Part shown: piece by piece, positions 8,970-64,000 of the stretch
Position numbering within the stretch: position 1 is the first letter of the stretch
Layout: each line of letters begins with the position of its first letter
NCBI GenBank assembly: GCA_008632985.1
Contig: QPGO01000038.1
Coordinates: 87,939-151,938, forward strand
DNA from: Psammoneis japonica
Lineage: Eukaryota
Length of the DNA: 64,000 nt
Direction of reading: 5' to 3'
Notes under the pieces: generated by a model
Told to the model about the DNA's origin: nothing
Database searches by the model: none
What the model saw: the letters and a program-made list of their open reading frames with translations, nothing else
Translations under genes and position numbers: made by a program

Positions 8970-9161
8970 ATTGTTCGAAGTGTTCGAATTTTTGTCGAAA
9001 ACACATTGCCCTCCAAAGATTTTGATTTAAGTCGCCAATTGTTCGAACTTTTCATGTTGCCCTTTTGGTCACTTCGAACTCATTCGAAAAAAGTTCGAAC
9101 TCATTCGAACAAGTTCGAAGTGTTCGAACAAGTTGAACACAAGCTTTTTCGCACCGACCCC
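8970..9161. repeat. Subterminal cluster of palindromic TTCGAA motifs
   Basis: Repeated GTTCGAA/ATTCGAA units, including duplicated TTCGAACTCATTCGAA and GTTCGAAGTGTTCGAA. Confidence 0.7.
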
Positions 9162-26050: not shown

Positions 26051-26107
26051 CGACGTGAGAATGGGCTCTTGGCACCAAGTCCCCGAACTTGGGCCATTGC
26101 CGAAGAC

Positions 26108-28363: not shown

Positions 28364-28440
28364 GACACATGAGAGGGGAGGCTCTTCCTGCGAACGATGA
28401 AAACAACAAATGGCGGATGGTGTCCTGCGCCAAATCGATG

Positions 28441-28657
28441 GCATTAAGAAAACCATCTTATGGCTGTTGCTCTTGGTTGCTCTTCGGAAGAATGAGAGGA
28501 GCGAGTGGAAGAGCAAATGGCCGTTGCTCTGGTCTTGCGAAAGCGCGTTCAAATTGTTGAACGGCTGAAAAAAAAAAACGACCCAACGGTCAAAAACGGG
28601 CCACAACGGCCAGGCGTGGGTCATTTCGCTTCGTATCGTCGAACGTCGCGAGGTTGG
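28441..28657 (-). repeat. 5' split repeat A1
   Basis: Near-identical to 22377-22563 apart from indels and TA/CG-site substitutions. Confidence 0.9.
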
Positions 28658-30030: not shown

Positions 30031-30265
30031 GTTACAAAGTGCTTTGTACTTGTAAACGACGAAGAGGAGAGCTCTTCAGGAATTTCTGTATTCTGTTTTC
30101 TGCAACGCGCAGTGCCTTCTAAGATGTACGGATGCTGCTTTTTGTTCTTTCTCATCACCGCACTCTCGCTCCCGTTTTGCGGCGGCGCAGCAACAAGTAC
30201 GGTATGCGGCCATGTCCATCACCATCGATGCACATGATGCGGCCGCCGGCCGCATGGATGTTGAG

Positions 30266-30448
30266 CGAGGTCTGAGGTCCACATAAAAACCGTTAGAGGT
30301 CTAACACTTCTTTTGAAAAAACCATTAGACCTCGAGGTCTGAGGTCTAGATAAAAACCATTAGAGGTCTAATGCTTTTTGCGAAAAAACCATTAGACCAC
30401 GAGGTCTGAGGTCCACATAAAAACGGTTATAGGCGGTCTAATGCTTTT
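30266..30448. repeat. 67-bp tandem repeat (~2.7 copies) with internal GGTCTAA/TTAGACC inverted motif
   Basis: CGAGGTCTGAGGTC at 30266, 30333 and 30400. Confidence 0.85.
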
Positions 30449-30720
30449 GACAGTTTCTCTACAGTATGGCGCATCGTACTATACAGTACAGTAGCTGGAA
30501 AACGAACAAAACAGGGGCTCAGAAATAATTATAAACCAAATCCCTATCTACCGGTAGAGAAGAGTAGGCCCTATAGTTCTAGAGACTAGAATACGTGTCA
30601 TCGCATGTCTCGTCTACAGTCTTGATTCCAATGGACCAGCGAAAGATGTACTATACCGGGTTGCGTGGACAGCAACAGACAAGCAGCAATAAGGAATGTT
30701 GACAACACCAGTTTCATGTC

Positions 30721-32229: not shown

Positions 32230-32578
32230 GGTGACGATACAGTAGTTACTATCCGGGCGGTGCTGCAATTCATGTGATTTGCGATTTGCGAAGGATCGCG
32301 AGGCGAAATAATAAGAGGAAAAATCTTTTTACGTCACTTCCGGGTATCTCAGATCACTGCGTGTAACACAAGCTTCTTCCGTACCAACAGACCTCCCAGT
32401 TGGGAGTGACATAAGCTCGTTCTCGACAACATGATAACTACAGGTACATGATGACTAAAAAGGACTAATGCTTTTTTGAACTGCTAACGTAGAATCAATC
32501 CTCATTTTGTTTCGACATCGGCAATGCTAGAGTTTTACTTTTTGCGAACGCCGAACTCTTGCCAGGTGCCATGATCCT

Positions 32579-33370
32579 TCAAATCACACCATTTCCGACA
32601 AAACGGTTGCACTGCCAGAGCTTCACAGTCGAAGCTACCTTCAAACTAACAAAGGGCTTACCCTGCACCACCTTTCTCTCTTGCTCCTGGCGACAAAGTA
32701 GTTGGCGTCTCAACAACAGTTGTTGAGCAAGCAAGACCTCCATCGCAGATCGAGCTTGGAAGGGATGAAGCTTTCGCGCATACGCCTCGAGATAAGGTGT
32801 TGCTACCCTGGGAGACAATTGATAGCTTGACGTGGCATTGAACTCATTCGATAACGCAATGAGTTCCTTTTGGGGGTCATCCGGTTGCTTGGTTCCGGCA
32901 CGAAGTCTCCAGACAAAGCCAATGGATTCAAGACGCGCTCGACGGTGGGTAGAAAGATTCGATCTGTTCTTCCTTTGTTCTCTTACAAAAGAGCCGAGCT
33001 TTGGGTCTGCCTTGTGTCGTTGAGGCACAAGACAATCCCCGTGCATTTCCTTGTACGCGACAAGCCTGTCGAACATTGTGTCCCACGGTTCGCGTTTGAC
33101 AACAGTCCAGACGAAACCAATGGAATCAAGTTGCTTTCTCCTCTCGGGAGAAAGGCTGTCTTTGTTCTCTCGTTGTTTATTCACCCATCGACCCAAACGC
33201 GGGTCCAAACTGTACCTCTGTGGTACTAGACAGTTTCCGTGTTTCAACTTGTATTGGACCAATCGCTTCGTCATATCATCCCAAATCTTGTTCCATTTCT
33301 CAACGGATGGGCTGACTTTCCCTCCTATATTCTCATCGGTACAAATCCTTCTCTTCTTGAGAGGTGCCAT
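32579..33370 (-). CDS. Helicase-associated (HA) domain protein, two HA repeats
   Basis: WDDMTKRLVQYKLKHGNCLVPQRY..DPRLGRWVNKQR...LDSIGFVW, followed by a second copy. Confidence 0.9.
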   Translation of the reverse strand: MAPLKKRRICTDENIGGKVSPSVEKWNKIWDDMTKRLVQYKLKHGNCLVPQRYSLDPRLGRWVNKQRENKDSLSPERRKQLDSIGFVWTVVKREPWDTMFDRLVAYKEMHGDCLVPQRHKADPKLGSFVREQRKNRSNLSTHRRARLESIGFVWRLRAGTKQPDDPQKELIALSNEFNATSSYQLSPRVATPYLEAYARKLHPFQARSAMEVLLAQQLLLRRQLLCRQEQERKVVQGKPFVSLKVASTVKLWQCNRFVGNGVI

Positions 33371-34169
33371 CTTCTCTAGAGCTATGACAAGACACTGAAT
33401 CGCAGATTTGTAGTCTACGCGTGTGCTGTGCCGTTTTGCTTTGTTGATTGTGTGAGTGAAACGCTACCGAAAAATCAGCAATGACTCTCCGGTTCCGAGG
33501 TAGAAACACCGCCATAACAAAGATTCCCTCAAGGGTTACAAATTATTGGTCTTTGCTAGAATGGACACTCTTGCGAAACCACTGCGTTCGTGCTGCCCTC
33601 TATGTACTCTCCAGTAGAGCGAATGCTGCGTAGCTAGAATATCTCGCTCGTGATATTTTTGTGTGACCAGATCAAACCAGACATTCTTGCATCAATGACC
33701 TTGGACAAATCTAATGAAACGTTTATGTGCGTGAATAGCAAAGAAGAGATCGATTTAACCCCTAGAAACAATTATTATCAATGACAGTTACAAATGACCA
33801 GTTGTTCAAGATAAGCCCCTTTTCCTCGTCCAGCGCACCACTGTGGAAAACAAAAACTGCATGATCACCATACTTAGCACTACCGTACTATAGCTACTGG
33901 TAGCATTGGGACTACTCTAGAGAAATCATCATCTTTAATCTCTACCAGCTACGGCACACCTGACGGAAGAACGCATTATGTAAGATAAGCATCTCGTGGA
34001 GATAGATCCTGTTTTTGTGCACTCGCAGTGTTGTGCCGGCAGAGAATGGCGCACAAAAACTAGATGCAGTAGTAGAAGTGTAGTACAATCGCACAAGGTG
34101 TCTGAAGTCAGAAGTAGGCTACTGTAGTCTAGTTTCAAAGTATCTTTACTTCCTTAGGTAACTCATGCT

Positions 34170-36859
34170 TCAATCTTCATGGCAGATTAGAGCCAATCGT
34201 TTAAGAACATGGTGAGGGCATCTTTCGCTCCATGTTTTCCATGCCAACGACGATGAGCAACCCTCCTTACCAAACTTGGAAACTCCCAGTGTCGCTAGCT
34301 CTGCAATTCTTACGCTACAATCCCGTCTAATGAGTTCTATTTCTCTGTGGGTCAGATGCTCTTCATGCCTGTCAAGGAATGATGCTTCCAAGTCGACCAG
34401 CAACTCAGCCGCGACGTCTAATTCGCCGACAGATCCAGAATTCTGTGGTTGTCTGAGAATGGCCACTGTGTGTGATTCGTAACATACTTCTTCCTTATTC
34501 GCTTGTCTTGACTTCAATATATCCTTGATAGCGGCGACGCTCGCCTGGAGGGACTCTCCAGCTTGTTTTGAGACTTTGATATTTTGTTCAGGGGCAGTCT
34601 GTGAGCTGTGTTTTCGGTGCCACAACCCAACTGCGGGGAACGATGCAACAGAGCGACAATCGTTTTGTACCAGTCGTAGCCAAAGATCGTAGTCTTCGGC
34701 CGCTCGAAGGCTCTCGTCGTAGCCTCCTGCTTGGACAATCGCGTCCTTTCGAAACATTGCCGTTGGATGAGCTAAACAACAAGAAAAGAACATGCACCAA
34801 GCTGTAAAGCCAGGGGAAGCTTGGTATATTGACGGGCGTACGTGGAATGAATTGACCGAATCACGATTCCTGCGGTCTCGCAGCGACTCTTTGTCTGTGT
34901 ACGGCAGGCACTCTGGCGATAGCTCCACCACTTCTCCCTCATCGGATTTAAAATCATAGGCTGACGATGTCTCTCTGAAAACCAACGCATTCGTTCCAAG
35001 AACGGCAAGGTGTGGCTGACTCTCGATAACACGTTTCTGTAGATGTAAACGTCCTGGACAAGAAACGTCGTCCGCATCCATTCGCGCAACAACATCAGCC
35101 TCGCAATGGCCGAGTCCAATGTTTAACGCAGCGGATATACCAGGACGGGAAGAGGCGTGTACATCGAGGCGGATCTGAACACCTTGAATGTGTTCCTTGG
35201 TATTCCCGTAGGCTTGCTTACAGTTTGTTCGACGGTCATTGACTGAAAGCGTGACATACTCGTACTTCTTGAGAAGACTGACAGCCGTGCCCATCATGGT
35301 ATCGATACTTCCGTCGTTACAGTGGTCGTCCACCAAGACTATCTGCAAAGGAGACAAGCTCAAAGATACACTATCCATAGAGTTGGCGCGTTCGGCATTG
35401 GCATTACCATGTTCGAGTAGCAACTTCTTTCTTTGGAGATTTTCCCATTCGTCAATAGGCTGCATGATGATTGATGTTATAGCGTGAGCTGCTGCGTAAG
35501 TCGGACCTGTCCGTACCGGAATCAGAATGCTGAGTGATGGTTTGTTATCTTGGATGCCAATTGTAGTTGCTTGAGAGAAGTTGGAAACATTGTCTGTGTT
35601 GTCGGGTTGATTCATCCACACACTTCCGATATGGGATGAATCGAATGCGGCAGCCTGATACTTTTCTAAATCCAAATTCTGTTGGTCTGTCATATGTTTA
35701 ATCAAAGCTTTTGGTGTGTATTTTTCCTTGCTGTCTTGGCATGCTAATGGGGCCTGGTAGAGTGTTTGAACACGATTGACAGCCAAAACAACGAGAAATG
35801 GACGGCTCGGGATTGCGCACAACAAGGGTTGATTCGACTTGCACAATACATTGTTGCCGCCTATTTCAAAAGGATTCGGATGCTTGAGACTCGGTGTTCC
35901 CTGCAGCTCCCTCAAAATCAAACGAAAAGTAGAGTCATGATACACACCGCCTGCATGTTGTCAAAGGGATCGTTGAGGACGAAGGGTACTTACAAGTAGC
36001 AAAGGCGCAAACTTCGTTGCAACGATGGTAACTACGCACCTGACAAGTCAAATGGATACGACCAATCTTGGGCACCGTCCACCTTTTGAGCTTTATTGAG
36101 CGCATACAAAAAGATACCATCCGTGGACTGACCAACACGAGTAGTCGTTTCAATTGGCATGTACTGAAATAGCCGGCTTGGAGCGGGCGATGGTTGCTGT
36201 TTTGTTTGACACCAGCATATTCCAGGATGCAGCCGTGACAGAAATACTGTATCTTGTCGTCGATTCAATGATTGAATAGCAGTGCTTAGCAGTTCCCACA
36301 GTGAAACTAAGAGTAAACAGTCGTCTGTCAGGAGAAACCAAAAAGAATTGTATTCACTCTTGTCTTCATCATCGTTCTTGGCTACAACAAGGTTCATCAT
36401 ACAAGCTTGAAACGAAAGTTCGTCATCCGCACCCTCTTCCACGTAGTTCAGAGACAGCTTGGAATTTTTGAAAACCGCACGCTGTAGATCCGTTATAACC
36501 TCGTCATAATAGGTAACATACTCTTCACTTGGTTTGCAAATCACGTCAAGTTGAATCTTTGAGATGGCATCTGCGTCGTCGTCTTCAAGCTTCATTGAGC
36601 GAAGCAGTTGCTGTAGCTGCCACGGGCGATCCTTGGTAAATACAACAACCCTAACCATAGCCGGCTTTGCGGGTATCTGATGTTTCGTCGAGAGATCGAC
36701 ATGCTTTTCTCGAGTTGCATCACAATCACTTTTGGTGTTCTTCTCAACGCCCCAATTAATCTTGTTCGAAGTTCCTGCAAAAGACGCAACAAGGTCAAGA
36801 ACAGACGAACCAGGGTCACCATCCCCGGAAGTTAAGCCGATAGACAGTATTTCTTCCAT
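34170..36859 (-). CDS. Glycosyltransferase family 2 protein, two exons (36040-36859, 34170-35950)
   Basis: GT-AG intron 35951-36039 joins YPFDLSG-GVY. GT-A motifs SILIPV, VLVDDHCNDGS, ALNIGL, ARMDADD, HPTAMFRK and AEDYDLWLR. Confidence 0.88.
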
Positions 36860-36907
36860 GCAGTCCGTCTCTATTGTTGGTCCTTTCTTACCGGTAGCAA
36901 TGTATGT

Positions 36908-46400: not shown

Positions 46401-47340
46401 CTGGGCTGCAAGCACACAAGCCAAACTTGTGCTGTCTGGAGCTTTCCTGTTCAAAAATCTGCACCAACACCTGGGCGGAGCCCCATGAGAAAGTTTGCAC
46501 CCAGTTTCCAAGAAAGCAGACGGCAACAAGAAGTGCATGGAATGACAGCAGGGGGCAAAATTTGGCAAGCACAAGAAGTTTTGTGGAGCTTCAGAACCCC
46601 CATGATTTTTTGTCTCGTCCAAAAATGCAAATTAAAAAAGTTTTTGCCAGCAGAGTGTCAGGTTTGACCCAGCCATGCTGGACACATGGCACTTGCAACA
46701 CCAAATCTGTCAAACCCCACGTGTGGACTCCAGCACCCAGAAACACTGTTTGGCGCACACTCCAGTTGGGAGACTCTTCTGCTTTCTTTAGTGGCATGCA
46801 GGATTTTGTGCTCTAACCTCACACTTGTGCAAAAAATGACACAGGAGCAGATGAAAAATGCACAGCCAAGGTCACACAGGAGCACCCAGCAGCTGTGCAG
46901 TGTCTGACAAGGATGAGGCAGTCATGCTCATGTTGACCACATCAACTCTGTCAGCTGCATTTTTGCATTGTGTGTTGTTGACAGTGCTGATGAGCATGCA
47001 GAGTGCTGCTGGCTGCTCAGCATTTGTTTGCAAAATTGCACTGCTCACAAGTGATCTTCTTTGTTCAACTGCACAAGCTTTTGCATTGTTTTTGGCACAC
47101 ATGCGTTTTGGTTGGAGATTTAAAAACTGGCATTTGACTTGACCGGAGTCATGCATCATGCATCATCTTGGCTCAAGAGATTGCAGATGTTGTGTCTTTT
47201 TGTCTTTGCTCTGGTGTTAATTTGTTTTTTTTTTCTGCAGCAAATGCATCAGTGGCTGCAGCAAGGTCAGATTGAATTGCTTTTTCATTGTACGGAAGAG
47301 TGTCAAAATGTTGGTTGCATCGAATCCAGAGGTCAACGGT
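43430..47340. mobile_element. Heavily decayed repeat block (TpA- and CpG-depleted), family not identified
   Basis: Abrupt compositional shift on both sides; only fragmentary Tyr-poor ORFs. Confidence 0.45.
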
Positions 47341-47675
47341 GGTGAGAGAAAAAAAATGTCACATCTCTTAAGTGCCGGATGAACGACCAATGAGGGATGC
47401 GCACATAGGGCGTGATTCAACAATAAGTTGTGGTCTGATGCATGGTTTGGTTTCGCCGCAGGATTGCCATGTTCCGCAACCGATAAATTTGCTGGAGAAC
47501 GTGTTTGCACTGGCTCTAAGTGGCTCTGCCTGGAGAAGAAGAACAAGAACTCGGGATTGTCGGCGAGGCTACTAATTACAGTTCTCGTTTCCAAGACAGT
47601 TATTTAACTCTTTCTCGAAACCCATGACCATTTCATTACCATCGTCAAGTCTCCAACAAATGGCCAAGCATCAAC

Positions 47676-50600
47676 CTAGATTAGCATGAACGCAACGCTA
47701 ACGATTACACCAAGCGCAAGAACCATGGAATGACGGCTTGCACCCGACGAGCCCCCGCCAGACCTCGACCTGTGATTGAGGCAACCAAACACAGTAGAAA
47801 TCGCATAGTTCTGACTAGGACCTTCAAGATGAGCCGCCGTCACTGTAACAACAAATGAATCACCATTGGCGGCCTTGAACCTTACGCGCTCCACATTGTT
47901 GACACGGTCCTTTTCACTACGTCCATTTGGATAATGAGTAATCTTTTCTCCAGAGACAGTCGTTTGTTCGACAAGGAGATCCAAGTCATTCATTAGACAG
48001 TCCAAACATCCGAGCGGACCAGGCAGGTCAAACCAAGTGATTGTGGCGGAGAGTTCCGCATCGCTGCACGTCTTGTTACCTGCCTCTAGCACAAACGAGT
48101 ATGTTTTGGTTTCTCCCTGATTGACGGTTTCACGATCGACAAAACCAGCAGTCAAGTCATTCTTTCCCGCAAGAGGCAGAGAATCAATCAAGCTGAGCCT
48201 TCCAAAACCTTGGCGGGCGTCTACATCGTTCAGACCGTAATTCTCTAGAGGTTGCGCTCCGTTAATCAAAACGGCCTTTGTAAAAGCAAGAAAACAGACG
48301 AGGTGCGTCAATGAAATCAATCGTACAAGTAGCATCATTTAACACGTTGCACCATACCTTGACCAATACACCAGATGGCTCAAAGCCAGACGCGCTGCCC
48401 TTACTTCCGTCTCCATGCCATCCTTCCATAAAGTATTGACGAACCAATGCGGCGCTGCCAGCCAAAACTGGAGTGGCCATGCTCGTTCCCTGCTTGGATG
48501 TGATTCCGTAATCAGGATTTCCCGCTTGACCCGGGCCTGGAAGATCTCCCTTGTTTGGAGGGTCGCACGATGGATCGACACGAGCACCAGCAGACAGCAC
48601 GTGTGCACCCGGCCCTACAATGTCCGGTTTGATTCTCTCGTCCATGGTGGGTCCCACGCTCGAAAACGACGCCAGGTCGTCAACTGCGGTCTTACCACTG
48701 GACAAAGACGTGCCTGCGCTATTGCTTGCACCAACTAGAGCGAGCCAAGCAGCAAAAAAAGAATAAAAGGAAACACGCTCTTTTAGGCACACGGCACCAT
48801 GGGGAACCAATACCGCGAAGAATACAAAGCCATTGACTTACCCGAGAGAACATTTTTAGACGATGCTGGAGAACCCACAGTTTGCGGATCGGGCCCAGAA
48901 TTACCTGCAGCAATGACAAGCAAAAAGGATTCGTCTGAATAGAGAAAGGTATCAAAGTCGCGGGCTTGAGATGTGTAGAAAATCGAAGCGCTACCCCAAC
49001 TAGCAGAATGAATTCTTGCGCCAGCGTCTTTTCCAGGTTGCAAGAGAGTACTAGCACCAGGAACCGAAAGACGTCCTAAGATATAAAATAGAATCGACAA
49101 GTCAGCATTGAACACATTGACAACAAATAAGAACATATGCTAATGCATTCATTCAGAACACCACACACTCTTACCTTGCTCATCATCCAAGCCAATGTCA
49201 AAGAACGCCAATTTCGCATCTTTGGCAATACCATCCACAAATCCGTCTAAATTGGTTACGCCATCGTCCGACCTGCGTCCCGCAATGGTTCCACATACAT
49301 GTGTCCCATGCCCATTCACTACCTCGCCAGCATTAATGTAGTCCACGTACTGCACGACCTTGCGCCTATCCGGGTCGAAGCCCTATGTATGGTATAAGGA
49401 AACAAGACGGATTTTAGAAACACCAAATTGAGAACTCTTCCCATATACAACAGCACAACAGCGCAACTGTCAATACATTGCACTCACAGTTCCAAAATCA
49501 ATTGTTTCATCATCTCGAAAGTAGCAATTGTCTAAATCAAGACCCGTGTCGGACACGGCAATCACCTGTCCGTCTCCGGTAATGCCAACATCAAAAAAGG
49601 GCGTATCACCATCGGTACCCGACTGTGAAATCCACTGCGCTTCTTCGTTTCGAGTACGAAAGGCTTCTCGACGTTCGATATAACACGTTTCCGGCGCGGC
49701 CGCGAGTGCAAACGTGAGGAGAATAAAGCACGTTTCCGGAGCCGCACCCGCCTTGGCGGCATTGAGAGACAAAATACTGTAATCGGCTCCTCCCTGTTCG
49801 ACTTGAACATTGTTGACCAACAAATCGTCGCAAAAGTTGGGTCGAGTCTGTAAAATGCCTTGAAGAGTCAACAGATTATCCTTGTACCCCTTGGCTTCGG
49901 GCAACAACACAAGTTGCTCAATGTAGGGGACGGTACCGGCTAGAGCATCGAGTGCCAACTTGGTATAATTGGTACTCTCATCCAAACCTGGACAAAAGTA
50001 AATGGCATACTGAAGTACGTCGCCTTGCTCAAAGTCCGTAAAGGAGACTGCGCCCGAACTAATCTTCATGAGAAAACTTACGGGCTGTAAAATGAAATCA
50101 CCAAGTTCTGCGGCTCGTGTTCCATTAAAGGAACCGAGATAACAGGTAATGTCGGGTTCGTTGTAAACCGTAGCCAGATAGTCTTGTAGATTGGCCGTGG
50201 CTGGATCGATTCCAAGTGCTTGGGCCACAACGTTGACTTTGCGATCGGCAGAAGAGGTTGGGTTTTCATCACAAATGTAAAAGGGCCAGGTCTTGCCGAC
50301 AGTTTGGTCGAGCGCAAACGCTTTCTCCCAATTATCACTTGCGTGCTGTTGCCACTCTGTATAAGATATAGTATGGTTGTGTGTGTGTGTAAGGTATTGA
50401 ATCAAAAGCAAAAAAAGCAAGATTGGTGAGCATACATACGATATTGTAAGGTTGTATGAGAGAAAAAAAGCGCAGATGAAGTGTATGATGTAAACATACA
50501 ACATCATATAACAACAACCCCCTCTACAGTAGTACACACCTTCCTCTGTAACACCACCCGTCGTTCCGTCCTCCTCTGGACTGACAAGACTGACAATCAT

Positions 50601-50738
50601 TTGTTGGAAAAACTCGAGCTTCATGGGCTGGGCAGCACGATCTGTCTGCGCCATGGCAACACCAGACAAGTGATGCAGGAGCCCTCCTGCAAACGCGAGA
50701 AGCAGAGAACGACGGCGAGACGAATACGATACCATCAT
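47676..50738 (-). CDS. Subtilisin-like S8 serine peptidase (KP-43/TagC-like), six exons, signal peptide and hydrophobic GPI-like C-terminus
   Basis: Catalytic VSDTGLD, GHGTHVCGT and QGTSMATP; also AAGNSG, IKPDIVGPG and NNVERV. GT-AG introns at ~50357-50539, 49383-49487, 49076-49174, 48735-48841 and 48276-48357. Confidence 0.92.
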
Positions 50739-51185
50739 GATGGCTCCACTTCCTTGTCTCGGTTTTCTTCTTATAACCGAATGAGATACTTTGTACCAAA
50801 CAGACTCTTTGCAACAAATAGTCTAAAATGGTATCTTTGGCTTGCAATGCGACAGCGCAGAAAAAATCGGGAATACGAAAATCAATCTTGCCAAAAATGC
50901 CGATCGCATATCTTTGATTCCTTCGATTGAAACGACCAGATTTTGTTTTTTCGTCCAGATTTTCTTTTTTTCTTTTTTTTTCGAAAATGCTATTTTTTCG
51001 ATTTTGGACGGACGCCGTTCAGACCACGCGCACACAACATAAACAGCCAGCCAGCCACACAAAAATGCCGCTCGTCTGTCGCAACAACGCACACCGCACA
51101 GCCGCACAACAAACAACAGCGGCAGCAGCAGCAACATCACTAAAACATACAACCTATCTGTAGCAACCACCCACAATTCTATACC

Positions 51186-53064
<1,879 letters not shown>

Positions 53065-53302
53065 GGATAAATAATATTGCATCAGTATAATAGTATAAGG
53101 CAGGCTTATTGATTCGACTATGAACAAGGATTGTAGACTACTTGGTTCTGGAGAATAGAGATAACAGCGAACCCAAATGGTGCGACATTGCGTCCAAAAA
53201 GATAACTACAAAATCGGTCTACAATCTTTCGAATGCAGTGGTGCATGGAACTCCATCGCAAAGTGCTTTCCTTTCGTGCTGCACATTATAAGCAATCGCA
53301 CT

Positions 53303-54895
53303 TTATTTGATACGCAGGACGGTCATCTCGCGCTTGTTCAAGGAGGCAAACTTTGGCTTGTTGGAGTATTTTTCAAACGTTTCAAGTGCAGCATCTCGGA
53401 CCTCTTCATCCTCTAACTTGCTAAAGGCTCTGTATTCGCATGGATAAATTGGACCCAAGAGACGTCGATTGAAATCCATGACAATAGAGCACGCATTGGA
53501 AGTGATGCCCAGTTCGTGTGCGATATCTTCATTCACCTCGGTGAGCAGCGCATACTCATTCAATGGACAACTCGTACGCTTTGCTTTCCATTTCTCAATT
53601 GCATCGTGCATGATGGAGCGATCAGGAAGAGATAGTTGCTTTGAAAAGATTTGGGCAATCCACCTGGATTGAATTTCAGCAGTCGGAAAGGCACCGCCAA
53701 TCATTCGAAACATGCAAACAAAGGCAATGGTTGAATCGGAAGGAACCATTGTGTGTTTGTAAAGCGCAAGAAACTTGTCTTTGCCAGTATCCACCACGAT
53801 ATTTTGGACTATCGAGTCGGGAAGAAAGCTCAAGTTGAGTTCATACCCAGTAGCGCTTATGATGATATCAAATTCTTGGCTAGATCCATCTGTAAAGGTA
53901 ACCATGCGGCCCTTGGAAGATGCAGGCAGAGGTTTCAATGTTAACTCTCCGGATTCAATATATTTGTTGTATGGAAGGCGGCTTATGGATGCAGATGCCT
54001 TTGAAATGTCAGGATCAGGATTGAAGCAGTCATCTACATTGGTTGGTTGCCTCCAGTACTGCTCTACAAGCGATTTGAGTCCTTGGGCATTCATTGACTC
54101 GGGTAGTACTTTCCCTAGCCAGACTGGGAGGCGTGAAAACATTACTTCATCTGCCGCACGGTACTTGCCGTTCTCGGTCAAAGCAAGAGTCTCAATGTTG
54201 TACCGTGGCTTGCGAAACGAGTGAGTCACATGGCTTGCTCTATGAAGAACGGCTTCGGTAGCAATTTCGAGACCTGAAACATTGTTTCCAATCACAAGCA
54301 CTCGTTTCCCCTTGATCTTGTCAATGACCTCTTTAAACTTGGAGCTATGAATTTTGACTGCATCACAGTTTATCAATGGACCTCCTTTCTCATTAAGCGG
54401 ATCGTGTGGATATTGATTCATGCCTTTTGCAACAACCATAAAGTCAAACGCGAGAGTTTCCTCGCCATTCTTGTCCGAGTATACCAACAGGTGCCACTTG
54501 TTATCCTCCTTCTTAGTAGCCTTCTTTACAAAGGTATTAAATTTAATTAGCCGACGAAGACAAAACTTGTTTGCATATGCATCCAAGTACTCCTTCGCTT
54601 CGCTTGCTGATGGATACAGTCCGGCGAAATCTTTTTCTGCGGGCGATGGGATTGCCGCTTCCCATGGGAAGTCGCTAAACTCCATAAGCCGTCGACTCTG
54701 ATTCATGTACAAGGACGGCCACACTGCACTCCCTGGAGACTTTAAGTTCCATTGACCACCAATATCACTGCTTGCTTCAAATAATTGTGCGTCAAGACCG
54801 CATTCGTGCAACGCCTTGGCAGCGGTCAAGCCGCTCGCTCCGGCCCCAATCACTGCAACTCTTGCTCTCGTCGTCGTACTCTCAGTGTCTGCCAT
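53303..54895 (-). CDS. Flavin-containing monooxygenase (FMO)
   Basis: VAVIGAGASGL, FEASSDIGGQW, KIHSSKF (FMO-motif variant), VLVIGNNVSGLEIA and IISATGY. Confidence 0.92.
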   Translation of the reverse strand: MADTESTTTRARVAVIGAGASGLTAAKALHECGLDAQLFEASSDIGGQWNLKSPGSAVWPSLYMNQSRRLMEFSDFPWEAAIPSPAEKDFAGLYPSASEAKEYLDAYANKFCLRRLIKFNTFVKKATKKEDNKWHLLVYSDKNGEETLAFDFMVVAKGMNQYPHDPLNEKGGPLINCDAVKIHSSKFKEVIDKIKGKRVLVIGNNVSGLEIATEAVLHRASHVTHSFRKPRYNIETLALTENGKYRAADEVMFSRLPVWLGKVLPESMNAQGLKSLVEQYWRQPTNVDDCFNPDPDISKASASISRLPYNKYIESGELTLKPLPASSKGRMVTFTDGSSQEFDIIISATGYELNLSFLPDSIVQNIVVDTGKDKFLALYKHTMVPSDSTIAFVCMFRMIGGAFPTAEIQSRWIAQIFSKQLSLPDRSIMHDAIEKWKAKRTSCPLNEYALLTEVNEDIAHELGITSNACSIVMDFNRRLLGPIYPCEYRAFSKLEDEEVRDAALETFEKYSNKPKFASLNKREMTVLRIK

Positions 54896-56488
54896 TTTGT
54901 ATGAGTGGATCTTCCTCAATCTAGAGAAACGCTCTCTTGCTTCCTCGCGTTCAAAAGCGTTCCGAGCAAGAGCGATGATTCTGCCATGGTGCGGAGACGA
55001 TAAGCAGAACGAACAACTTCTTCAACTTCAACTTTCCCGCCAGTTTCCCGCGCATTTTTGTCTGTTTGGGGGGCGTCTTTGGAAGTGAGATCGTCGAAGG
55101 CGGTCTGATCGCCAGTGCGTTTGGGGTTTTTTCCAGTACAATTTGTACGCACAAGAAAACACGTAGGATCTGTCCAGAGGTCCCAAATACCCAATCGCAC
55201 TGATTGACAGACTGTTTTAGTACAAATTCTACGTAACTTTCTTCGACAGTCTCACTTCCGAAGACGTAGCCCATGTTGATCTCTGCGCCAATCTGGGATT
55301 GGAAACTGACCCGGGAATGGCGACTGACTCGTGACTCGAAGTTTGTGAGATCATGGTGGTCTCTACCATCGCATCAGCGAGTGGCTAGAGAGTGGTTGAC
55401 GACAGCTTTTTGTCCACCTTTTATCACGACAAGGCAACACCAAAGCTTGCATTGTAACGACGTTTGTGGGAGCAGTGAATTGAAGCCAGTTGCAAGTCAG
55501 AAGAATTGTGGCACAAGCACGATGAACAAAGATCGGCTCAACAGCGAATGCTCTCCTCTCCCTCAACCATTGTGAACACTTGGACAACATCTTCTGTCAC
55601 CATGATTGTTGCCACCCATGACCTGTAAGAAAATGGGAGTGCATTTCCAGGCGAACCAAGACAATCTGGAGTCTGTTGCTTGTGTGGCATCATCAGAGAA
55701 CCTGACAGGATTTGAACAGGATTTGGGTGCACGCGAAATGTCGCGCGCTGTTTAGTTTGCCGCGCACAGTTTTGTGTGCTTTAGTTCCGCGCGTTCGCGC
55801 GCGAAGCAGTTTGCTTTCGAGCCACAAGGCTCACAAGAACAATGACAGTGGCCCGATTGTGCCGACTTGCACGTCTTTCGGCTCCTGTGACGGTCTCTGA
55901 GCGGAGACTCATCTGCCATTTAGACAGCAGCAAGGAGTTGTTGTTTGAATTCTTGCCATTTGCCTTCAATTTCTGTCAGATTGACAGTCTTGCTCATTGT
56001 CAACCCATTGAGCAACCGCCATCGTCGTCGTTGATTTGCCGACGACGCCACTTCAATTCTGCGTGGACCTCCGCATGCACTCTACATGCGTCGGCAAGTC
56101 TGCGCGTGTTCAACACCAGGCATCGGCAGGAATTTAACGTCGCCGTCAAGTCTCCTTGCCGCTGGACATCTGGATTGATTGTGCTGCCTTTCAGTGCTGA
56201 AGACATGCATTCAACGGTCACATCCAAGTCCACCCTTGATCCTCATCCCTTGATGTGCCCATTCATCAGTTGACGGTCAAGAACCCCACATGTTCAAGGA
56301 TCTTTGTCGCTGAAGACATGTGTGCACACATGTCTTCACGAAAAGGAGAGGATTTCCCAGCTGGAAGTTGCTGCTGGCTGCAAAGCTGTGTGCCCTGACA
56401 GAGATGTGAAACCAGCCACACTCGTTTTTGTTTGCAGATCACCCAGACAACACCCGACCACCTGTGCAATGCTGTGTGCAATGCTCTC

Positions 56489-57104
56489 TGTCAGGATTTG
56501 AGCAGGATGTTTAGTTCACTGCGCACAGTTTTGTGTGCTCTTCAGTTCTGCGCATGTGCACGCAACGCAGTTTGCTTTCGAGCCACAAGGCTCACAAGAA
56601 CAACAACAACAGCAGCCAGATTGCACCGACTTGCATGTCTTTTGGCTCCTGCAACGGTCTCTGAGCAGAGACTCATCTGCCATTTAGACAGCAGCAAGGA
56701 GTCATTGTTTGAATTCTTGCCATTTGCCTTCAATTTCTGTCAGATTGACAGTCTTGCTCATTGTCAACCCATTGAGCAACCGCCATCGTCATCGTTGATT
56801 TACCGACGACGCTGCTTCAATTCTGCGTGGGCCTCTGCACATGTTCTACACACATCGGCAAGTCTGCGCACGTTCAATGCCAGGCATCAGCAGGAATTTA
56901 ACGTCACCGTCAAGTCTCCTTGCCGCTGGATGTCTGGATTGATCATTCCACCTTTGATCGCTGAAGACACACATTCAACGGTCACATCCAAGTCTGTCCT
57001 TGATCCTCATCCCTTGATGTGCCCATTCATCGGTCAATGGTCAAGAACCCTGCATGTTCAAGGATCTTCGTCGCTGAAGACACACACATGTGCATGTCTT
57101 CACG
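56489..57104 (+). repeat. Second copy of LTR + 5' leader (duplicate of 55703-56340)
   Basis: Offset 764 bp, with a ~22-bp deletion near the LTR start. Confidence 0.9.
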
Positions 57105-57695
57105 GCTGAGAACTTGTGCCCACTCTTCGGACTGCGGTTTTGCTGCCACTCTGCAAGCACACCGAGTCCATTGCACCTGATCTACCCCGGACTGCTGGTG
57201 CTCCACAGTTCCACCAGGTCCACGAGGACAACTGTGAGAGCAAGTGGCCATGATTGCAGCCTGCGTTGGGGCGAGGGTGTTTTCCCGCGTTTGTTTGTTC
57301 GTCCACAGTGCCTGACGCCTGCGTCAACTGGCCAGCCTGATCGGGAAATCCAACCGACATAAAACAAGAACGGTTCGGGGGTCTTGTCCACCTCTGGTCA
57401 GCTCACCTGCAGGGGTTTACAACCCGCTGCTCCGCTTGCAAGCAACCCAAAGCGCCGCCAGCTGCGGGTTCGGACGTGCCGGCACAACTCTACGGACCGG
57501 ACAGGAAGTTTGGCACTTGACAACGAACGGGATGGCACAACCCGGCGACTTCTGATTTTAAGATAGTCCAAGATTTCAAGTCAAGTCCAGCTCAAGTCAA
57601 GTCTTTTTCAAGCCAACTTCCAAGTCAAAACTCTGAGTCAAGATCGCGCTCTAGATTGGATCCTGTCTTTTGTTTCTACTGCACCGTCCTCCGTC

Positions 57696-59450
57696 ATGGT
57701 TCTCACGCGACAGCAACAAACCAAAAGCTTCAAATACATTCTAGGCACTGTGCTCAATCAAGACGATGACAGCCCTCTTCGTTCTGCCCTGTCCATCAAC
57801 GGGATTGAATCGTGCGAGGAATTGTTCACGTTCTCACCCACCCAAATTGACGCCCTCACTTGCAGAGACGGCGCCAATGTAGTGCCTTTGCCACGGACCC
57901 ACAGAAACCTCCTAGCAGCTTTGATCAGCTTCTGCTTTCTCAAAGTTTGCAACGGTGATGATGTGACCAATGAACCCCAGTTGCTCACACCCGAGGAATT
58001 TCGCAACTGCCGCCTTGGTCCAGACTGCTTGACCTCTCTAGCCACTGGCGCAGCACCCTCCGCACCTGTGCCGAGTCCCTTGCCATCCAAACCAGGTGAA
58101 CCCAGTGCCATTTTGACACCAGCCTTGCACTGTGCCACCACTCAGGTGTCCCCCAGAAGTGGTGTCAGTCGCGCCCCGCATGTCTTGACCAACCCGCCTG
58201 CAAGCAACCACGGCCCAGTGCAGGATTGCAGCCCTTGCACAGGCCCGCACTTCGAGACCAGTTGGGACACTCCACCCATGGCTTCCAAAGCTGCAGTCTT
58301 TGCACCCCGCAAACCACGTGCTGCCAACCTTCACGTGTCGACCACTGTCACCCTTCACAGTCTTCGTTTGGGAAGTGATGGAGATGACAACTTGCTTCTG
58401 ACATCTCCTGATGGGGAGCCTCCTTTTCCCATCATTGAATCTGTTCACAACAGTTCAACCGGTTCATCAGATGGGGAGTTCAGGACATCCAAGCAGCTTC
58501 GTTGTCTTTGGATGCCTCAAGTCTCGTGCCTCGAGACTGGGCCTCCTGATTGGATGCCTCAAGTCTCGTACCTCGAGACCAGGCCTCCTGATTGGATGCC
58601 TCAAGTCTCACACCTCGAGACTGGGCCTCCTGATTGGATGCCCCAAGTCTCGTACCTCGAGACCAGGTCTCCTGATTGGATTTCCCAAGTCTCGCACCTC
58701 AAGACCAGGCCTCCTGATTGGATGCCTCAAGTCTCGTGCCTCGAGACTGGGCCTCCTGATTGGATGCCCCAAGTGTCGCACATCAAGACTGGGCCTCCTG
58801 ATCGGATGCCACAAGTCTCATGCCTTGAGACCAGGCCTCCCAAATGGACTCTCCACGTCTCGTGCCTCAAGACCGGGCCTCTGGATTGGATCCCCCAAGT
58901 CTCGCACCTCAAGACTTGGCCTCCTGATTGGATCCCCGAAGACTCGTGTCACAAGACTGGCAAGTCCTTTTGGATCCCAGAAGTCTTGCAGCACGGGACT
59001 GGTTGCCCCAATCAGACATCTGCAGCCTTGCACCACAAGATGTCTTGCTCCAACCCGATCCCCGAAGGCTTGCACCTTGAGACTCGTTTCTCCAATTGGA
59101 TCAGTCTCTCAGGAGATGCAGCTGAGCTTGCAATCGGATTGGTGGAACACAAGACCACCGCTTGTGCCTTTGAACTCATGCTTGCTCTGTTCCCCGAGTC
59201 GTGCAAACGCCATGCCGCCTGCAATGTTGCCCCGCCGTTCAACATTGTCAACCAGACCAAGCTTTGCTCCTTCCATTGCAAGTGCGGATGTGGAATCCCA
59301 CAAGATCCCAAGTGTGCCTTGAGCTTTGAAAAGCACAACGGCATCTGCAATTGGGGAGACGCAGCTCATCTCAAGATGACCCACTTGGAGAATGCAACGT
59401 TGCTCTTGGATCTTGATCCTTTCTTGTCTCCTCATGTTTTGGTGCTTTGA
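57696..59450 (+). pseudogene. Copia gag N-terminus fused, via a 14-aa repeat array, to a short pol remnant
   Basis: MVLTRQQQ..FKYILGTVL..DDDSPL..AL...GI resembles a CoDi gag start. C-terminal KCGCGIPQD...HNG..NWGDA..LKM resembles the KYGYEIPRD...NGN.KW.DA..LEM integrase-RT linker. Integrase, RT and RNase H are missing. Confidence 0.75.
58508..58975 (+). repeat. 42-bp tandem array (~11 copies) encoding WMPQVS(Y/C/H)LET(G/R)PPD
   Basis: Unit TTGGATGCCTCAAGTCTCGTACCTCGAGACCAGGCCTCCTGA; exact 42-bp period, no spacers. Confidence 0.95.
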
Positions 59451-59792
59451 CTCCAAAGTTCTTTGGTCAATCCGAAGTCGAATCTGTTTGTGTGACTCCT
59501 CAAGCAAACTGGGGAGTGACAGGATTTGAACAGGATTCAGGTGCGCGCGAAATGTCGCGCGCTGTTTAGTTTGCCGCGCACAGTTTTGTGTGCTTTAGTT
59601 CCGCACGTTCGCACGCGATGTAGTTTGCTTCAGTGCCACAAGGCTCACAAGAATGACAACAGCAGCCCGATTGTACCGACTCACACGTCTTTTGGCTCCT
59701 GGGACGGTCTCTGAGCAGAGACTCATCTGCTGTTTAGACAGCAGCAAGGAGTTGTTGTTTGAATTCTTGCCATTTGCCTTCAATTTCTGTCA

Positions 59793-60420
59793 GAACCAGC
59801 TGGCTGCAGTGATCGAGGCTGCCTTTCTCACAGTGATTTTTCCTCCTTTTGTGGGTAAAAAATCTTTGCTGGAACAGGACATGAGTTGTGTTTGTGGTGA
59901 TGACATGTTGGCTGTCACAGATGAACATTTTCATGCTGTGGGGTCTGACCCCCGCCCCCTCCTGTGTGAGGAAAACATGTTTCATGCTTCGAAACAGCTG
60001 CCAGTTTTCCCCGCGAGAGTTCACACCATCCATCCCCACAAAACTGCAAATTGAAGTCATTTGCATTGTAAAAGTTTTATTTTTTTGTTTGCTGGGGCTT
60101 GCTGGCCTGGCAGAGATGCAAGCTCAGTGGTGGAGATGCTGCTGACAGCACTCAAGTGTCCACACCGGCATTGGGAGTTGAGTGGCATCCCTGCCCTCCC
60201 CTTGCCATCAAAGAGCAACTGGCAAGAAGCTTCTCAACAAGACCCAGGCATCAAACTGTGCATTGATGCATTGAAAGCAGGTGCCACTCTCAACAAGTCG
60301 AAGCTGTTGAGTGCTGAATTCAGCAAAGAATTCCAGCATGGAAGACTCGGGACCAAAGAAGGCATCCTGCGCTGGTGCAAGGGAAGAAGAAAAGCACGTT
60401 GAGACAAATGCAGACAAAAG
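59793..60420 (+). pseudogene. Possible older LTR-retrotransposon pol remnant interrupted by the Copia
   Basis: WQEASQQDPGIKLCIDAL...EGILRW resembles an RNase H-integrase linker. Weak similarity only. Confidence 0.3.
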
Positions 60421-61699
60421 CAGGGCCAAAAAGACATGGGCGAACCATCTTCTCAACCACACATGTCTCGCCTTGTGTGGGACATTCAAGCTGCGAAAAT
60501 GCCTGCTGGAAGATTGCTGCAATCTTCTGGTGGCCAGCAATGGTTTGCCCCACACCTCCCATGCTGTGGAGGGTTCATCAATCACCACTCATGCTGCAGA
60601 GGGTTCATCAATCACCAGTTGTGGCCACATGCTGCATGCTGTTCAAAAACAACATGCACAATCATGCTGCCAGATCTCCTGAACACAAGTCACCAACAGA
60701 GCTTTTTGCAAATGTCCAAGTCAAGCCCCCAAGTTGCATCACCTCCACTCCTTTGCTGGATGCCCTGTGCATGCAACAAAGAACAAGTTGCAGTCAGGCT
60801 CTCATCCTCTAAAGTGGGAAACAAGAGCACACATGGGTGTGTTTGCCTTGGACCTTCACTCAGACACACCAGATCTGGCACTTGTCCTTGACCTCAAAAC
60901 AGAGGGCTTGCTTCTCCACAATGTCATGTCAAAATTGATGACCCATTTGAGGCTGTCAAAGGCTCGTCAATCATTCCTCAGAGTGCCTGGCAAAAAATGG
61001 TGTGTTGCTTCAAGAAAAAAGCATGAGTCAGATTCTCTCCATGAACATTGAGACACAAGGCAACTTCAGCTCCTTCTCAAGATGTGTTGGACTTGCCACC
61101 AACTGATGGCGGGGGCAATGCCAATGATGCAGACTCACCTCTGAGCCACACAGAGTGAACAACAACCTCTGCTTTGCCAAATGAGGGAGGCTTGTAAACA
61201 ACAAGTGCCACTTCTGAAGCTTCTGCAGCTGACTCAGGATCACCAACACCACCAATGGTCACAACACACTCATGCTGCAGATGGTTCATTGATGGTGCAT
61301 TTGCAGCATGGACCAGAAACAGTGGAGAGAAACTCATGCATCCTCCAATGGGTCCCCCCCCACCTCCACTCTCTGCCTCTGCAGTCTTTCTGGATCTAGA
61401 CATGAAAAACTGAGAATTCAAATGTCAACAAACACATCAAAAACCAACAAACCTCTTTTTTTGCACATGCCTTGTCTGAAGAGTGTCATTTGTGGCAACT
61501 TGTGATGACCCCAGATGATGCAAAATTCTGACATGCGTGATTGCACCAGCACTGTGGAAAAGTTTGCAATGTGTCTGTGCACACACAACAACACAACAGC
61601 TCAGCATTCAGGATGGATTTGCAACAGCACACTCGAGACAATGAAACTCAAGATGCGCCCCAATCAAAACCCATCTTGACCAACCAGAAGGACAGCAGG

Positions 61700-62520
61700 T
61701 CTCACCATGCAACGTTTGCAGGGCACACATGTGCACAATGTTTGAAAGATGCACATGAGGTGCGTGTGAGGTGTGCAAGATGTGTGCATGTGGTGAGAAG
61801 CGCGTGTGTGAGGTGTTTGTGAGGTGTTTGCCAGGAGTGTGTAAAATGTGCATCATGTGTTTGCAAGACATGTGTGCAAGCTTTGTGCAAAATGTTTGAC
61901 AGATGGGTGCAAAACATTTGAAATGTTGCATGCAAGAAGCACCACAAATGTGTGTGAGGTGTTTGCAAAATGTGTGTGCAAGGTGATTGCAAGATGTGTG
62001 CAGCGCATGTGTGTGAGGTGATTGTGAGATGTTTGCCAGATGTGCACAAAATGTGTGAGATCTGTTTTTGAGGTGTGCACAAGGTGCGCATGAGATGTGC
62101 TCATGATGTGTGTGAGATGTTTTTGAGATGTGTGTGAAGTGGTGCATGTGAGGGGTTTACAAGATGTGCACAAGATGCACACAAAAAAGTTTGAAAAATG
62201 TGTGCAAGGTGTGCAAGAGGTTTTTGCAAAATGTGCGCAAGGTGTGTGCGTTGGCACTTGTGAGATGTGTGCAATGTGTGTGTGAGGTGTTTGTGAGATG
62301 TTTGTGAGATGACATGTGAAACACTCAAAAGATGTGTGAGATGTGTGCAAGGTGCTTGTGAGACATGTGCAAGGCATTGGCCAGAGGTGTGTGTGCAATG
62401 TTTGAAAGATGTGTGCAGAACATTTGGGAGACATGCGGGAGCTTTCTGCCAGACATGTGCAAAAGTGTTTGTGAGATGTGCATCTGGTGTGCAAGGCACA
62501 TGTGTGAAGTGCTTTTTCAA
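61700..62520. repeat. Degenerate TG/CA-rich low-complexity array (GTGTGCAAGATGTGTG-like units); similar sequence at 63760-64000
   Basis: Imperfect repeats of TGTGTGAGGTG / TGCAAGATGTG / TGCAAAATGTG. Confidence 0.75.
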
Positions 62521-64000
62521 GAGCCCTGTGCAAAAGAGCTGTGACACAAACTCCCGTTGGAGCATTTTGTGGTCACTGTGCTGAGCTTTCATCTGCTTTC
62601 TCATCCAATGCATGCCCAACCACTGATTTGCAGGTGCACTCTCCATTGTAAACTCTGGCACTCATTTCCATCTCAACAACATTTGATGGCATGGCATGTG
62701 TTTTCACAAAATTCTTTTGGCTGTTTTTCATTCTCAGACAACAGCCAAGGACCAAAGAATGCATGTGAAGCTGACAACAACTCCAGCAAGCATGTGGACA
62801 TTGACTGCAAGCAAGGTTTTCTGTGTCTTGCACCCCAGCTTCCTTTGCTCAGTGTCAGAGGTCACTCTGGGACAGGCACAGAGCTGAGATGGAGAGAGAT
62901 GGGTGTTTGACCTCCTCTGTTCTCCAGCTTCAAAAGTGCCCAACTCCCCTGGGAGAGCAGCTTCTCACACAGCAATGGCGCTTGCATGCATCAGCCCTTT
63001 TCTTGGATTTTCTGGCATTCCTTTTGCAGCTGCAAGCATGTGTTGCTTTGACTTCCACTTCTGCCATGCCAGCAAGGGATCGCCCCAAATGTGCTCAATG
63101 CACAAGATTGAGCATGCCTTTCCAAATGCTCTTGTTGCACAACTCGTTCATCAAACAAAAAGTGCGCCACATCACAGGCTTCACACTTGCACACTCCCTG
63201 TGCACCCAAAACAGGATGGGACAATTGTCTGCCAGATCACCTTTGCAGATGAAAATGGCAGGCCCTTTCCATGATCTGACCTTCAAAAAATCAGCAAAGC
63301 CTTTGTTGGGTTGACCCAAGAACTCCTGATGTGCTTGAAACATGCTCTCATCACCGTCAATTTTCTCCAACACAAAAGAAGCTGCCAAGAGCATGGCACA
63401 GCATTTTGTTTGTCTTTCAACACAGGTCCAGCCAAGGAGGGCATGCTGTGTGCCAGCGTGCCATGGTGTGCTGAGCTGGACAAACTGCAGCGCTTCTGGA
63501 GCATGACGGAGGCAGTCTTGGGACCCATGCCAGCAGGGAGTGTGGAGCAATTTTTTGGAATTTTGCACGCAGAAATGTGCGCGCAAAACACACGATGGAT
63601 GACAAAAACAATTGTGTCACAGATCAGCACTGTGAGCTCCCACCTGGGGCTGGAGCGCATCATTTCCACGTGTGATCTTCAAAAAAATTGTTCCAGACTC
63701 ACTGTTTTGCAAAACCCCAGATGTTTTGTTTGCAGCAAAATTGCAAGACCATCAATGCTCCAGGTGTGCAAGATGTGTGCACAAGATGCAAGCAAGATGT
63801 GTGTCAAATGCATGTGAGGTGCTTGGGTGAGATGTGTGCAAAATGTTTGAAAGAAGCGCGTGGGATGTGCGCAAGATGCACACAAACAAAATGTGCATGA
63901 CACACAAGACACACGCAAGGTGTTTGTGAGATGTTTGCAAAACATTTGTGAAGAAGTGTGTGTGAGGTGTTTTGCCAGGTGTGTGCACTGAGCATGTCAA

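Follow-up and report, generated by a model that had tools for sequence, protein, structure and literature searches.

The closest described counterpart of the pattern reported here, and the only one known, is the hypermutation of integrated viral DNA in the rhizarian Bigelowiella natans. A 2026 preprint on mutation-accumulation lines of this organism (Mettrop et al., 10.64898/2026.01.13.699255) reports that 231 of 302 new point mutations fell within two integrated viral regions, that 230 of the 231 were A-to-G or T-to-C changes, all 230 of them at TpA, and that the mutation rate in these regions was about 1000 times the background. The preprint also describes 124 TpA-poor, CpA- and TpG-rich clusters in the genome, together with an enrichment of reverse transcriptase and DDE domains among low-TpA coding sequences, and its authors propose deamination of adenine in DNA, with an ADAT2-like candidate enzyme. 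Here, we analyzed 64,000 nt of the genome of the diatom Psammoneis japonica (contig QPGO01000038.1, positions 87,939 to 151,938 of the forward strand; this whole stretch is called the window and is numbered from its first nucleotide), focusing on a long terminal repeat (LTR) retrotransposon on the plus strand at 55703 to 59792. Our reading, to which we assign a probability of about 0.82, is that this non-autonomous element was hypermutated from TpA to TpG or CpA after its integration, in a process confined to chromosomal domains.

As in the B. natans preprint, the changes found here are transitions confined to TpA, which yield TpG or CpA, affect both strands of chromosomal DNA, are restricted to certain regions with a mobile target and occur far above background. 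The host here is a diatom (stramenopile) in place of a rhizarian, and the target is an LTR retrotransposon with transposon relics in place of a giant-virus or virophage insert. The observed/expected ratio of TA is 0.07 over 43 kb of the window, compared with the 0.45 reported for the nucleocytoplasmic large DNA virus region of B. natans (10.64898/2026.01.13.699255), and the evidence comes from two LTRs that share a target duplication rather than from mutation-accumulation lines. We also found a flanking preference for T-A-pyrimidine (T-A-Y), whereas the Results and Discussion of the preprint describe no extended context. Judged by these sequence features, the diatom case is the same kind of hypermutation as that in B. 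natans, in a different lineage and a different class of target. A literature search on this signature in diatoms, or on TA-specific mutation of transposons, yielded no diatom report, and the other papers found on a dinucleotide signature concerned fungal repeat-induced point mutation (RIP), a process that runs in the opposite direction.

RIP resembles the process in the diatom in that both act after integration, at the level of DNA and through dinucleotide-specific transitions in mobile DNA, ruining coding capacity and inflating divergence. However, fungal RIP changes C to T, chiefly in CpA, so that duplicated DNA gains TpA, whereas TpA is destroyed here (observed/expected 0.07, with TG and CA at 1.65 and a polarity from TA to TG or CA). 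A dependence on duplication is likewise unsupported, as depletion affects a single-copy flank and spares a multi-copy stretch (see below). Retroelements of animals are also hypermutated with nearest-neighbour preferences by APOBEC (C to U, in DNA) and by ADAR (A to I, in RNA), the latter preferring a 5' U according to the Discussion of the preprint (10.64898/2026.01.13.699255). These enzymes work before or during reverse transcription and on one strand, and their changes are copied into both LTRs; in the diatom element, by contrast, the LTRs differ and both strands were hit.

Differences between the LTRs of one insertion

The element is delimited by two direct LTRs of 276 nt, at 55703 to 55978 (5' LTR, TGACAG...CTGTCA) and at 59517 to 59792 (3' LTR), and directly beside the outer end of each lies the same 5-bp target-site duplication, GAACC (55698 to 55702 on the left; 59793 to 59797, identical, on the right; all features of the element are on the plus strand). 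Two direct LTRs, TG...CA ends and a short target duplication are thus all present, and the LTRs and the duplication set the ends of the element. An extra LTR (TGTCAGG...CTGTCA) was found inside it at 56489 to 56742; close to its 5' end this LTR lacks a short segment, about 27 to 30 nt as read by eye from the sequence and the alignment. The 5' LTR and the extra LTR are each followed by a leader, copy 1 at 55979 to 56345 and copy 2 at 56743 to 57110, and the two leaders align with each other. The extra LTR and leader copy 2 repeat 55749 to 56345 at an offset of 764 nt, as a duplicated block of 597 nt that is skipped in some contigs of the family (joint from 56079 to 56851). The LTRs of one insertion are identical at integration. 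As the two terminal LTRs share one target duplication, they stem from a single integration, and the differences between them therefore arose in chromosomal DNA.

The first-pass annotation of the window had drawn attention to a homologous site that reads GATTG-TG-CCGAC in the 5' LTR (55860), GATTG-CA-CCGAC in the internal LTR (56624) and GATTG-TA-CCGAC in the 3' LTR (59674), to a second site with G-TA-GTTTG in the 3' LTR and G-CA-GTTTG in both others, and to a leader pair with GATT-TA-CCG at 56801 and GATT-TG-CCG at 56037. All of these were present as described, the second site lying at 59621 in the 3' LTR and at 55807 in the 5' LTR, and they are a small part of a far larger pattern. Over 278 aligned positions, the terminal LTRs showed 24 mismatches in a gapless alignment, 20 of which were transitions. 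Nineteen of the 24 fell within dinucleotides that are pyrimidine-purine (YpR) in both copies, and every one touched a YpR in at least one copy, while the 131 positions outside any YpR had no mismatch at all. Double swaps between TG and CA occurred six times, as against a mean of 0.23 and a maximum of 4 under a null in which the same numbers of transitions and transversions were placed randomly; none of the 20,000 simulations reached six. The internal duplicate pair carried 80 mismatches over 597 aligned nt (68 in YpR/YpR dinucleotides and 5 at the 277 positions outside YpR), including 23 TG-CA swaps, compared with a null mean of 1.66 and a null maximum of 8. Variation of the same type was seen among the units of a 42-nt tandem array, in which columns 20 and 21 read TG, TA or CA, corresponding to Cys, Tyr or His codons, and columns 31 and 32 read TG or CA. 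A self-BLAST of the window for other repeat pairs returned only 22377 to 22563 against 28441 to 28657, a very small pair with one swap.

A site reading TG in one copy and CA in another must descend from a dinucleotide one step from both, which leaves CG or TA. Sites with CG in both copies and in one copy only (CG/CG and CG/x) numbered 16 and 5 in the LTR pair and 21 and 20 in the duplicate pair, giving per-copy losses (q) of 0.135 and 0.32 under a model of CpG loss only; this model predicts about 0.2 and about 2.3 swaps, respectively, and the observed 6 and 23 exceed both predictions. Under a model of TA loss, the two TA/x sites found in each pair correspond to per-copy losses (p) of 0.92 in the LTR pair and 0.98 in the duplicate, and the original LTR would have held about 14 susceptible and 3 resistant TA. 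The resulting total of about 17, or 6% of dinucleotides, is near the 5.4% in the neighbouring unaffected spacers.

The polarity was then read from other copies of the family, using contigs of one public DNA sample (runs X1 to X4) aligned to 53000 to 58400 with at least 80% likeness. From X1, 5,861 contigs fitted this segment, with a summed depth of about 280,000 in the LTR bins versus 60.5 for the single-copy gene nearby. These depths show a family of very high copy; within the window, the element is its sole member. Transitions made up 178 of 196 variant places in X1. Among the 40 listed of 201 variant places, which were assigned to classes after adjacent rows had been re-paired by hand, the other copies had TA at 23 where the element has TG (13 places) or CA (10 places). 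Six more places, forming three pairs, were swaps between TG and CA, and at five places of CG type the family reads CG. The remainder comprised one place where the element has TA, one CG-to-CA change, one GG-to-GA change and three transversions. At 55849 to 55850, a place with TG in the 5' LTR and CA in both other LTRs, TA accounted for 70% of the family depth, and many TG and CA of leader copy 2 also correspond to TA in other family copies. Because the other copies read TA at 23 of these 40 places, the direction of change is TA to TG or CA. The ancestral TA implied by the first-pass annotation was thus borne out twice, by the family read-out and by the excess of swaps over the CpG-only prediction.

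These data also fixed the timing and the strands. LTRs that share one target duplication differ, and they carry both TG and CA as derived states, so the origin of the changes after integration, as originally put forward, holds. The polarised outcomes (13 TG and 10 CA) place the changes on both strands of the DNA, again in line with that proposal, and with 363 TG and 397 CA in the element as a whole, the two strands were affected about equally. There was no sign of strand-coordinated tracts, as runs of TG versus CA outcomes numbered 4 and 12 with 3.7 and 11.4 expected, and the heterogeneity of TG and CA per 500 nt was not raised in depleted domains (chi-squared per degree of freedom, 2.12 versus 2.41 in normal regions). 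Per site and copy, the LTR pair had undergone about 2.5 events at susceptible TA, 0.145 at CG and none at the 131 other positions. TA thus mutated at roughly 17 times the rate of CpG, and at a rate at least about 200 times that of the remaining positions. Decay of methylated CpG has the same products, TG and CA, and co-occurs in these domains, but differs from the TA process by this 17-fold lower rate per site. Dating by LTR divergence is accordingly inflated here, as had been expected, for the total divergence is 8.6% and the non-YpR positions have no mismatch.

TA-erased domains and gene islands

Across the whole window, the observed/expected ratio was 0.25 for TA and 1.5 for TG and CA. A profile in 1-kb steps was bimodal for TA, with TA-normal gene islands (TA ratio 0.5 to 0.8) alternating with TA-erased domains at about 1 to 28.6 kb, 37.2 to 41.9 kb, 43.7 to 47.3 kb and 55.46 to 64 kb, 43.3 kb in sum; the last of these (55460 to 64000, strand not applicable) contains the element and its older flanks. 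The depleted domains had ratios of 0.07 for TA, 1.65 for TG, 1.64 for CA and 0.55 for CG, while in the gene islands TA stood at 0.55 in sequence covered by open reading frames (ORFs) and at 0.75 in non-coding spacers, with CG at about 1. Domain borders lie near 28650, 37210, 41900, 43700, 47100 to 47500 and 55460 and are sharp within about 100 to 200 nt; at one of them, TA recurs every 10 to 20 nt as far as 37209, after which there is none until past 37800. Since the spacers of the gene islands are spared, the process is targeted to domains and is not a genome-wide bias corrected by selection. The depletion extends beyond the element into its left flank (55460 to 55702), which has 1 TA and is single copy (depth 56.4, one contig, one difference).

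Among the depleted kilobases, the CG ratio ranged from 0.07 to 0.85, whereas TA was uniformly at or below 0.15, and kilobases with CG at 0.7 to 0.85 were already at 0 to 0.14 for TA. This spread of CG with uniform loss of TA fits a fast TA process accompanied by a slower decay of CpG. The CG level in the erased domains may be a relative clock, or may mark a separate methylation state. Its value of 0.68 in the element versus 0.13 to 0.3 in the right flank suggests that the element is the younger of the two. Just right of the element, a weak match to Integrase_H2C2 was obtained at 60318 to 60809 on the plus strand (E = 2.9e-4, below the Pfam cut-off), and the insertion site of the element seems to have been a Ty3/gypsy-like relic that was older and had decayed further.

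Survival of TA depended on its neighbours, with survival expressed as density in the depleted domains relative to normal regions, a reference that is mostly coding DNA and makes the values indicative only. Relative density was 0 for ATAT, 0.014 for GTAT, 0.019 for ATAC and 0.029 for GTAC, and rose to 0.21 for CTAA, 0.27 for CTAG, 0.36 for TTAG and 0.43 for TTAA; RTAY contexts (R, purine; Y, pyrimidine) were thus lost most completely, and YTAR survived best. After the strands were symmetrised, survival was 2.9% for TAT/ATA, 6.7% for TAC/GTA, 16% for TAG/CTA and 18.6% for TAA/TTA. Read on one strand, these values point to T-A-pyrimidine as the preferred target.

Proposed process and rival explanations

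We propose that a non-autonomous LTR element of a very high-copy family would have inserted, with a 5-bp duplication, into an older decayed transposon relic, and that the chromosomal DNA of the whole domain would then have been hypermutated, A:T pairs becoming G:C at the adenine of T-A in either strand. Within the element this process would have come near saturation, with about 92 to 98% of susceptible TA lost per copy. Each copy would have ended independently as TG or CA, an outcome that would produce the swaps between TG and CA and the rare three-way TA/TG/CA sites. A slower decay of CpG to TpG or CpA, most simply through deamination of 5-methylcytosine, would have proceeded in the same domains. 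Heterochromatin or small RNAs may direct the process to transposon domains, where it would act as an enzymatic genome defence against mobile DNA.

The data above establish that the changes came after integration, in DNA, on both strands, at TpA and within particular domains, whereas the chemistry is inferred. Our leading guess at it, with a chance that falls slightly short of even, is enzymatic deamination of adenine to inosine in DNA at T-A by an ADAT/TadA- or ADAR-like enzyme. tRNA adenosine deaminases act on U33-A34 and prefer TAC, which resembles the need for a 5' T and the T-A-Y preference seen here and may be related to them. Going further, and tentatively, diatoms and perhaps many protists of the SAR clade (stramenopiles, alveolates and Rhizaria) might possess a dedicated, chromatin-directed DNA adenine deaminase that erases TpA from integrated transposon and viral DNA. 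If so, this system would mirror fungal RIP in the A-to-G direction while depending on neither meiosis nor duplicated sequence; over 90% of TA sites could be erased by it ahead of any build-up of ordinary substitutions, and it would remove TAA and TAG stops as well as TATA-like motifs from silenced DNA as a side effect. A natural DNA adenine deaminase with a T-A preference would, moreover, be of interest for base editing.

The base attacked could instead be the thymine of TpA, oxidised in silenced transposon domains by a TET/JBP-type enzyme to 5-hydroxymethyluracil (5hmU) or 5-formyluracil, which would mispair with G or be misrepaired and so change T to C. TA is palindromic, and T to C on one strand is indistinguishable from A to G on the other; 5-formyluracil, furthermore, favours A:T-to-G:C changes. 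The T-A-Y preference tells against thymine as the base attacked, in that it recalls the tRNA adenosine deaminases. In the literature, a link between 5hmU and transposon silencing in dinoflagellates, described in a 2024 PNAS article (PMC11572971), lends thymine oxidation some weight, whereas the authors of the B. natans preprint favour adenine deamination, and we judge oxidation of thymine unlikely, though still a serious contender. If TA were uninvolved altogether, all TG/CA variation would have to come from methylated-CpG decay. Such decay is real, as is evident from the 5 and 20 CG/x sites of the two pairs, from the five listed places where the family reads CG and from CG ratios as low as 0.07 to 0.3 in some depleted kilobases. 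It nevertheless predicts far too few swaps, and it conflicts with the 23 listed places at which other copies have TA, not CG. Nor does it explain why TA lies far under CG in the same DNA, even in the kilobases that retain most CG, and a three-way TA/TG/CA site is four steps from CG but two from TA. As the sole source of the variation, CpG decay is therefore very improbable.

Three further readings fare no better. ADAR-like A-to-I editing of the element's RNA, or error during reverse transcription, might have preceded integration and been inherited; edited retroelement RNA can be fixed as A to G, and the preference of ADAR for a 5' U (10.64898/2026.01.13.699255) would suit TpA. Yet a single template predicts identical LTRs, and 24 differences were seen. 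Sense-strand editing, moreover, gives TA to TG only and cannot yield TG and CA outcomes alike, while 10 of the 23 polarised changes are TA to CA, that is, T to C on the sense strand; and depletion is just as strong in the single-copy flank, which lies outside the element. We thus give this source almost no credence, and the first-pass annotation was right to argue against it. The substitutions would also be spurious if a long-read basecaller had misread modified TA in silent chromatin as TG or CA. Modified motifs do cause systematic errors in nanopore consensus sequences, but contigs built from accurate reads matched the window, for example with 0 differences over 2,094 nt of a gene, 1 over 447 nt of the depleted single-copy flank and 0 over 243 nt of the element. 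The same run, possibly the assembly's own source, reads TA at those places in other copies, and a sequencing or assembly artefact is hardly credible. Finally, the change is from AT to GC and the family is of very high copy, both of which would be compatible with a genome-wide AT-to-GC bias or GC-biased gene conversion, with selection keeping TA in genes. This reading is at odds with the non-coding spacers of the gene islands, which keep TA at 0.75 (5.4% of dinucleotides), with the sharpness of the borders and with the restriction of the change to TpA rather than all A and T (0 of 131 non-YpR positions changed). Gene conversion, in addition, cannot make two different derived states at one site, and we consider bias or conversion extremely unlikely.

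Several points weigh against domain-confined TpA hypermutation after integration, or narrow its base. A multi-copy stretch of about 200 nt at 55068 to 55264, between the FMO-like gene and the depleted domain, has a summed depth of about 9,000 to 10,000 (single-copy level, 60) and keeps 8 TA; together with the depleted single-copy flank, it indicates that repetition is neither sufficient nor necessary for the loss of TA. The polarity derives from summed contig depths in a single sample that is possibly the assembly's own source, and its classes from a partial listing of the variant places. One of the listed places runs in reverse, the element having TA at 57184 where 28% of the family depth has TG, and another, 56870 to 56872, could descend from either CG or TA. 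Interleaved CpG decay has the same products, and a single TG or CA site can be assigned to one process or the other only with an outgroup. Five mismatches of the LTR pair are complex or transversions, and the window supplies a single LTR pair, a single internal duplicate and a single tandem array as evidence. Lastly, three to four TA sites, for the most part TTTAG, have survived in every LTR copy, showing that not every TA is susceptible; the TTTAG sites agree with the context bias of the surviving TA.

Two LTRs of one insertion, with their common target duplication, offer a clean natural experiment on TpA-specific hypermutation of both DNA strands after integration, in a group of organisms that is ecologically dominant and includes several genetically tractable species. 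Together with the Bigelowiella preprint, the diatom case suggests that an A:T-to-G:C genome-defence mutator is widespread in protists. In genomes of this kind, dating by LTR divergence, clustering of repeat families, gene prediction and homology searches are all misled. Loss of TAA and TAG gives spurious ORFs of up to 1,163 codons, and Tyr codons become Cys or His.

Element content, relics and neighbouring genes

The longest sense ORF, the only long one of the element, runs from its first ATG at 57696 to 59450, in a stop-to-stop frame that opens at 57567. It contains the tandem array of 42-nt (14-aa) units, located at 58508 to 59095 (58508 to 58947 according to TRF). A purine-rich, polypurine-tract-like sequence, AAACTGGGGAG, adjoins the 3' LTR at 59506 to 59516 and also precedes the LTR start where other contigs of the family have loose ends. 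None of the element's ORFs matched reverse transcriptase, integrase (pol) or any other Pfam family, so that gag and pol are not recognisable, and a PDB sequence search with the element ORF gave nothing significant (best E = 0.15); these results point to an element that is non-autonomous, or else decayed beyond recognition. Rfam yielded no family in the window. Metagenome scans gave 65 pattern matches, 0 of them confirmed, with peptides of the element ORF, and 0 matches with an unchanged 32-nt stretch of the LTR. Each leader copy ends in a short inverted repeat, GAAGACATGTGTGCACACATGTCTTC, located at 56301 to 56347 in the first. Its centre reads TGTGTGCACACA in one leader copy and CACACATGTGCA in the other, a difference to be expected if an alternating run of TA had decayed separately in each copy.

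In the depleted domains, 2 of 148 ORFs of at least 110 codons had a Pfam match, both weak, and the other 146 had none. A mobile origin is indicated for the LTR element, with its target duplication, and for the weak Integrase_H2C2 relic, but not for most of the depleted DNA. Many of these ORFs probably owe their length to the disappearance of TAA and TAG stops. A 42-residue fragment of an MCM P-loop domain (17740 to 18102, minus strand; E = 6.6e-6) lies inside a TA-erased domain and may be what is left of a mobile or viral element that carried a helicase. Two stop-free frames of 754 and 1,163 codons were found on the minus strand at 23460 to 28657, in TA-erased sequence with a GC content of 0.58; they had no Pfam match and probably arose as TAA and TAG stops disappeared, rather than being genes. 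At the right end of the window, 61700 to 64000 is occupied by a TG-rich degenerate repeat with a periodicity of 11 nt and GTGAGATGTGT-like units, including 33 copies in a 52-nt register. The TG ratio of this repeat reaches 2.3, TA and CG are nearly absent, and it holds the strongest strand skew of the window (109 TG versus 39 CA in the 500-nt window at 61960).

For the neighbouring S1+Nkap_C gene at 51652 to 53064, 1,925 relatives were obtained at E <= 1e-10. Ten of the 120 relatives listed carried an organism name, and all ten were diatoms: Cylindrotheca (two species), Cyclotella (two species), Bacillariaceae sp., Stephanodiscus, Amphora, Discostella and two entries abbreviated as 'Pseud...' and 'Chaeto...'. 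The gene islands at 28933 to 36907 and 47676 to 55021 are compact and apparently intron-poor. Besides the S1+Nkap_C gene, they encode an alpha/beta-hydrolase, a GPR180/TMEM145-like protein, a protein with an HA (helicase-associated) domain, a GT2 glycosyltransferase, a subtilase fragment and an FMO-like monooxygenase. The domain matches were uninterrupted in five of these genes, namely those for the FMO-like, GT2, GPR180/TMEM145, alpha/beta-hydrolase and HA-domain proteins. With the diatom homologues, this lack of introns speaks against a dinoflagellate or the intron-rich B. natans as the source and makes a pennate diatom the most likely host. The feature-based neighbours of the FMO-like protein were largely bacterial.

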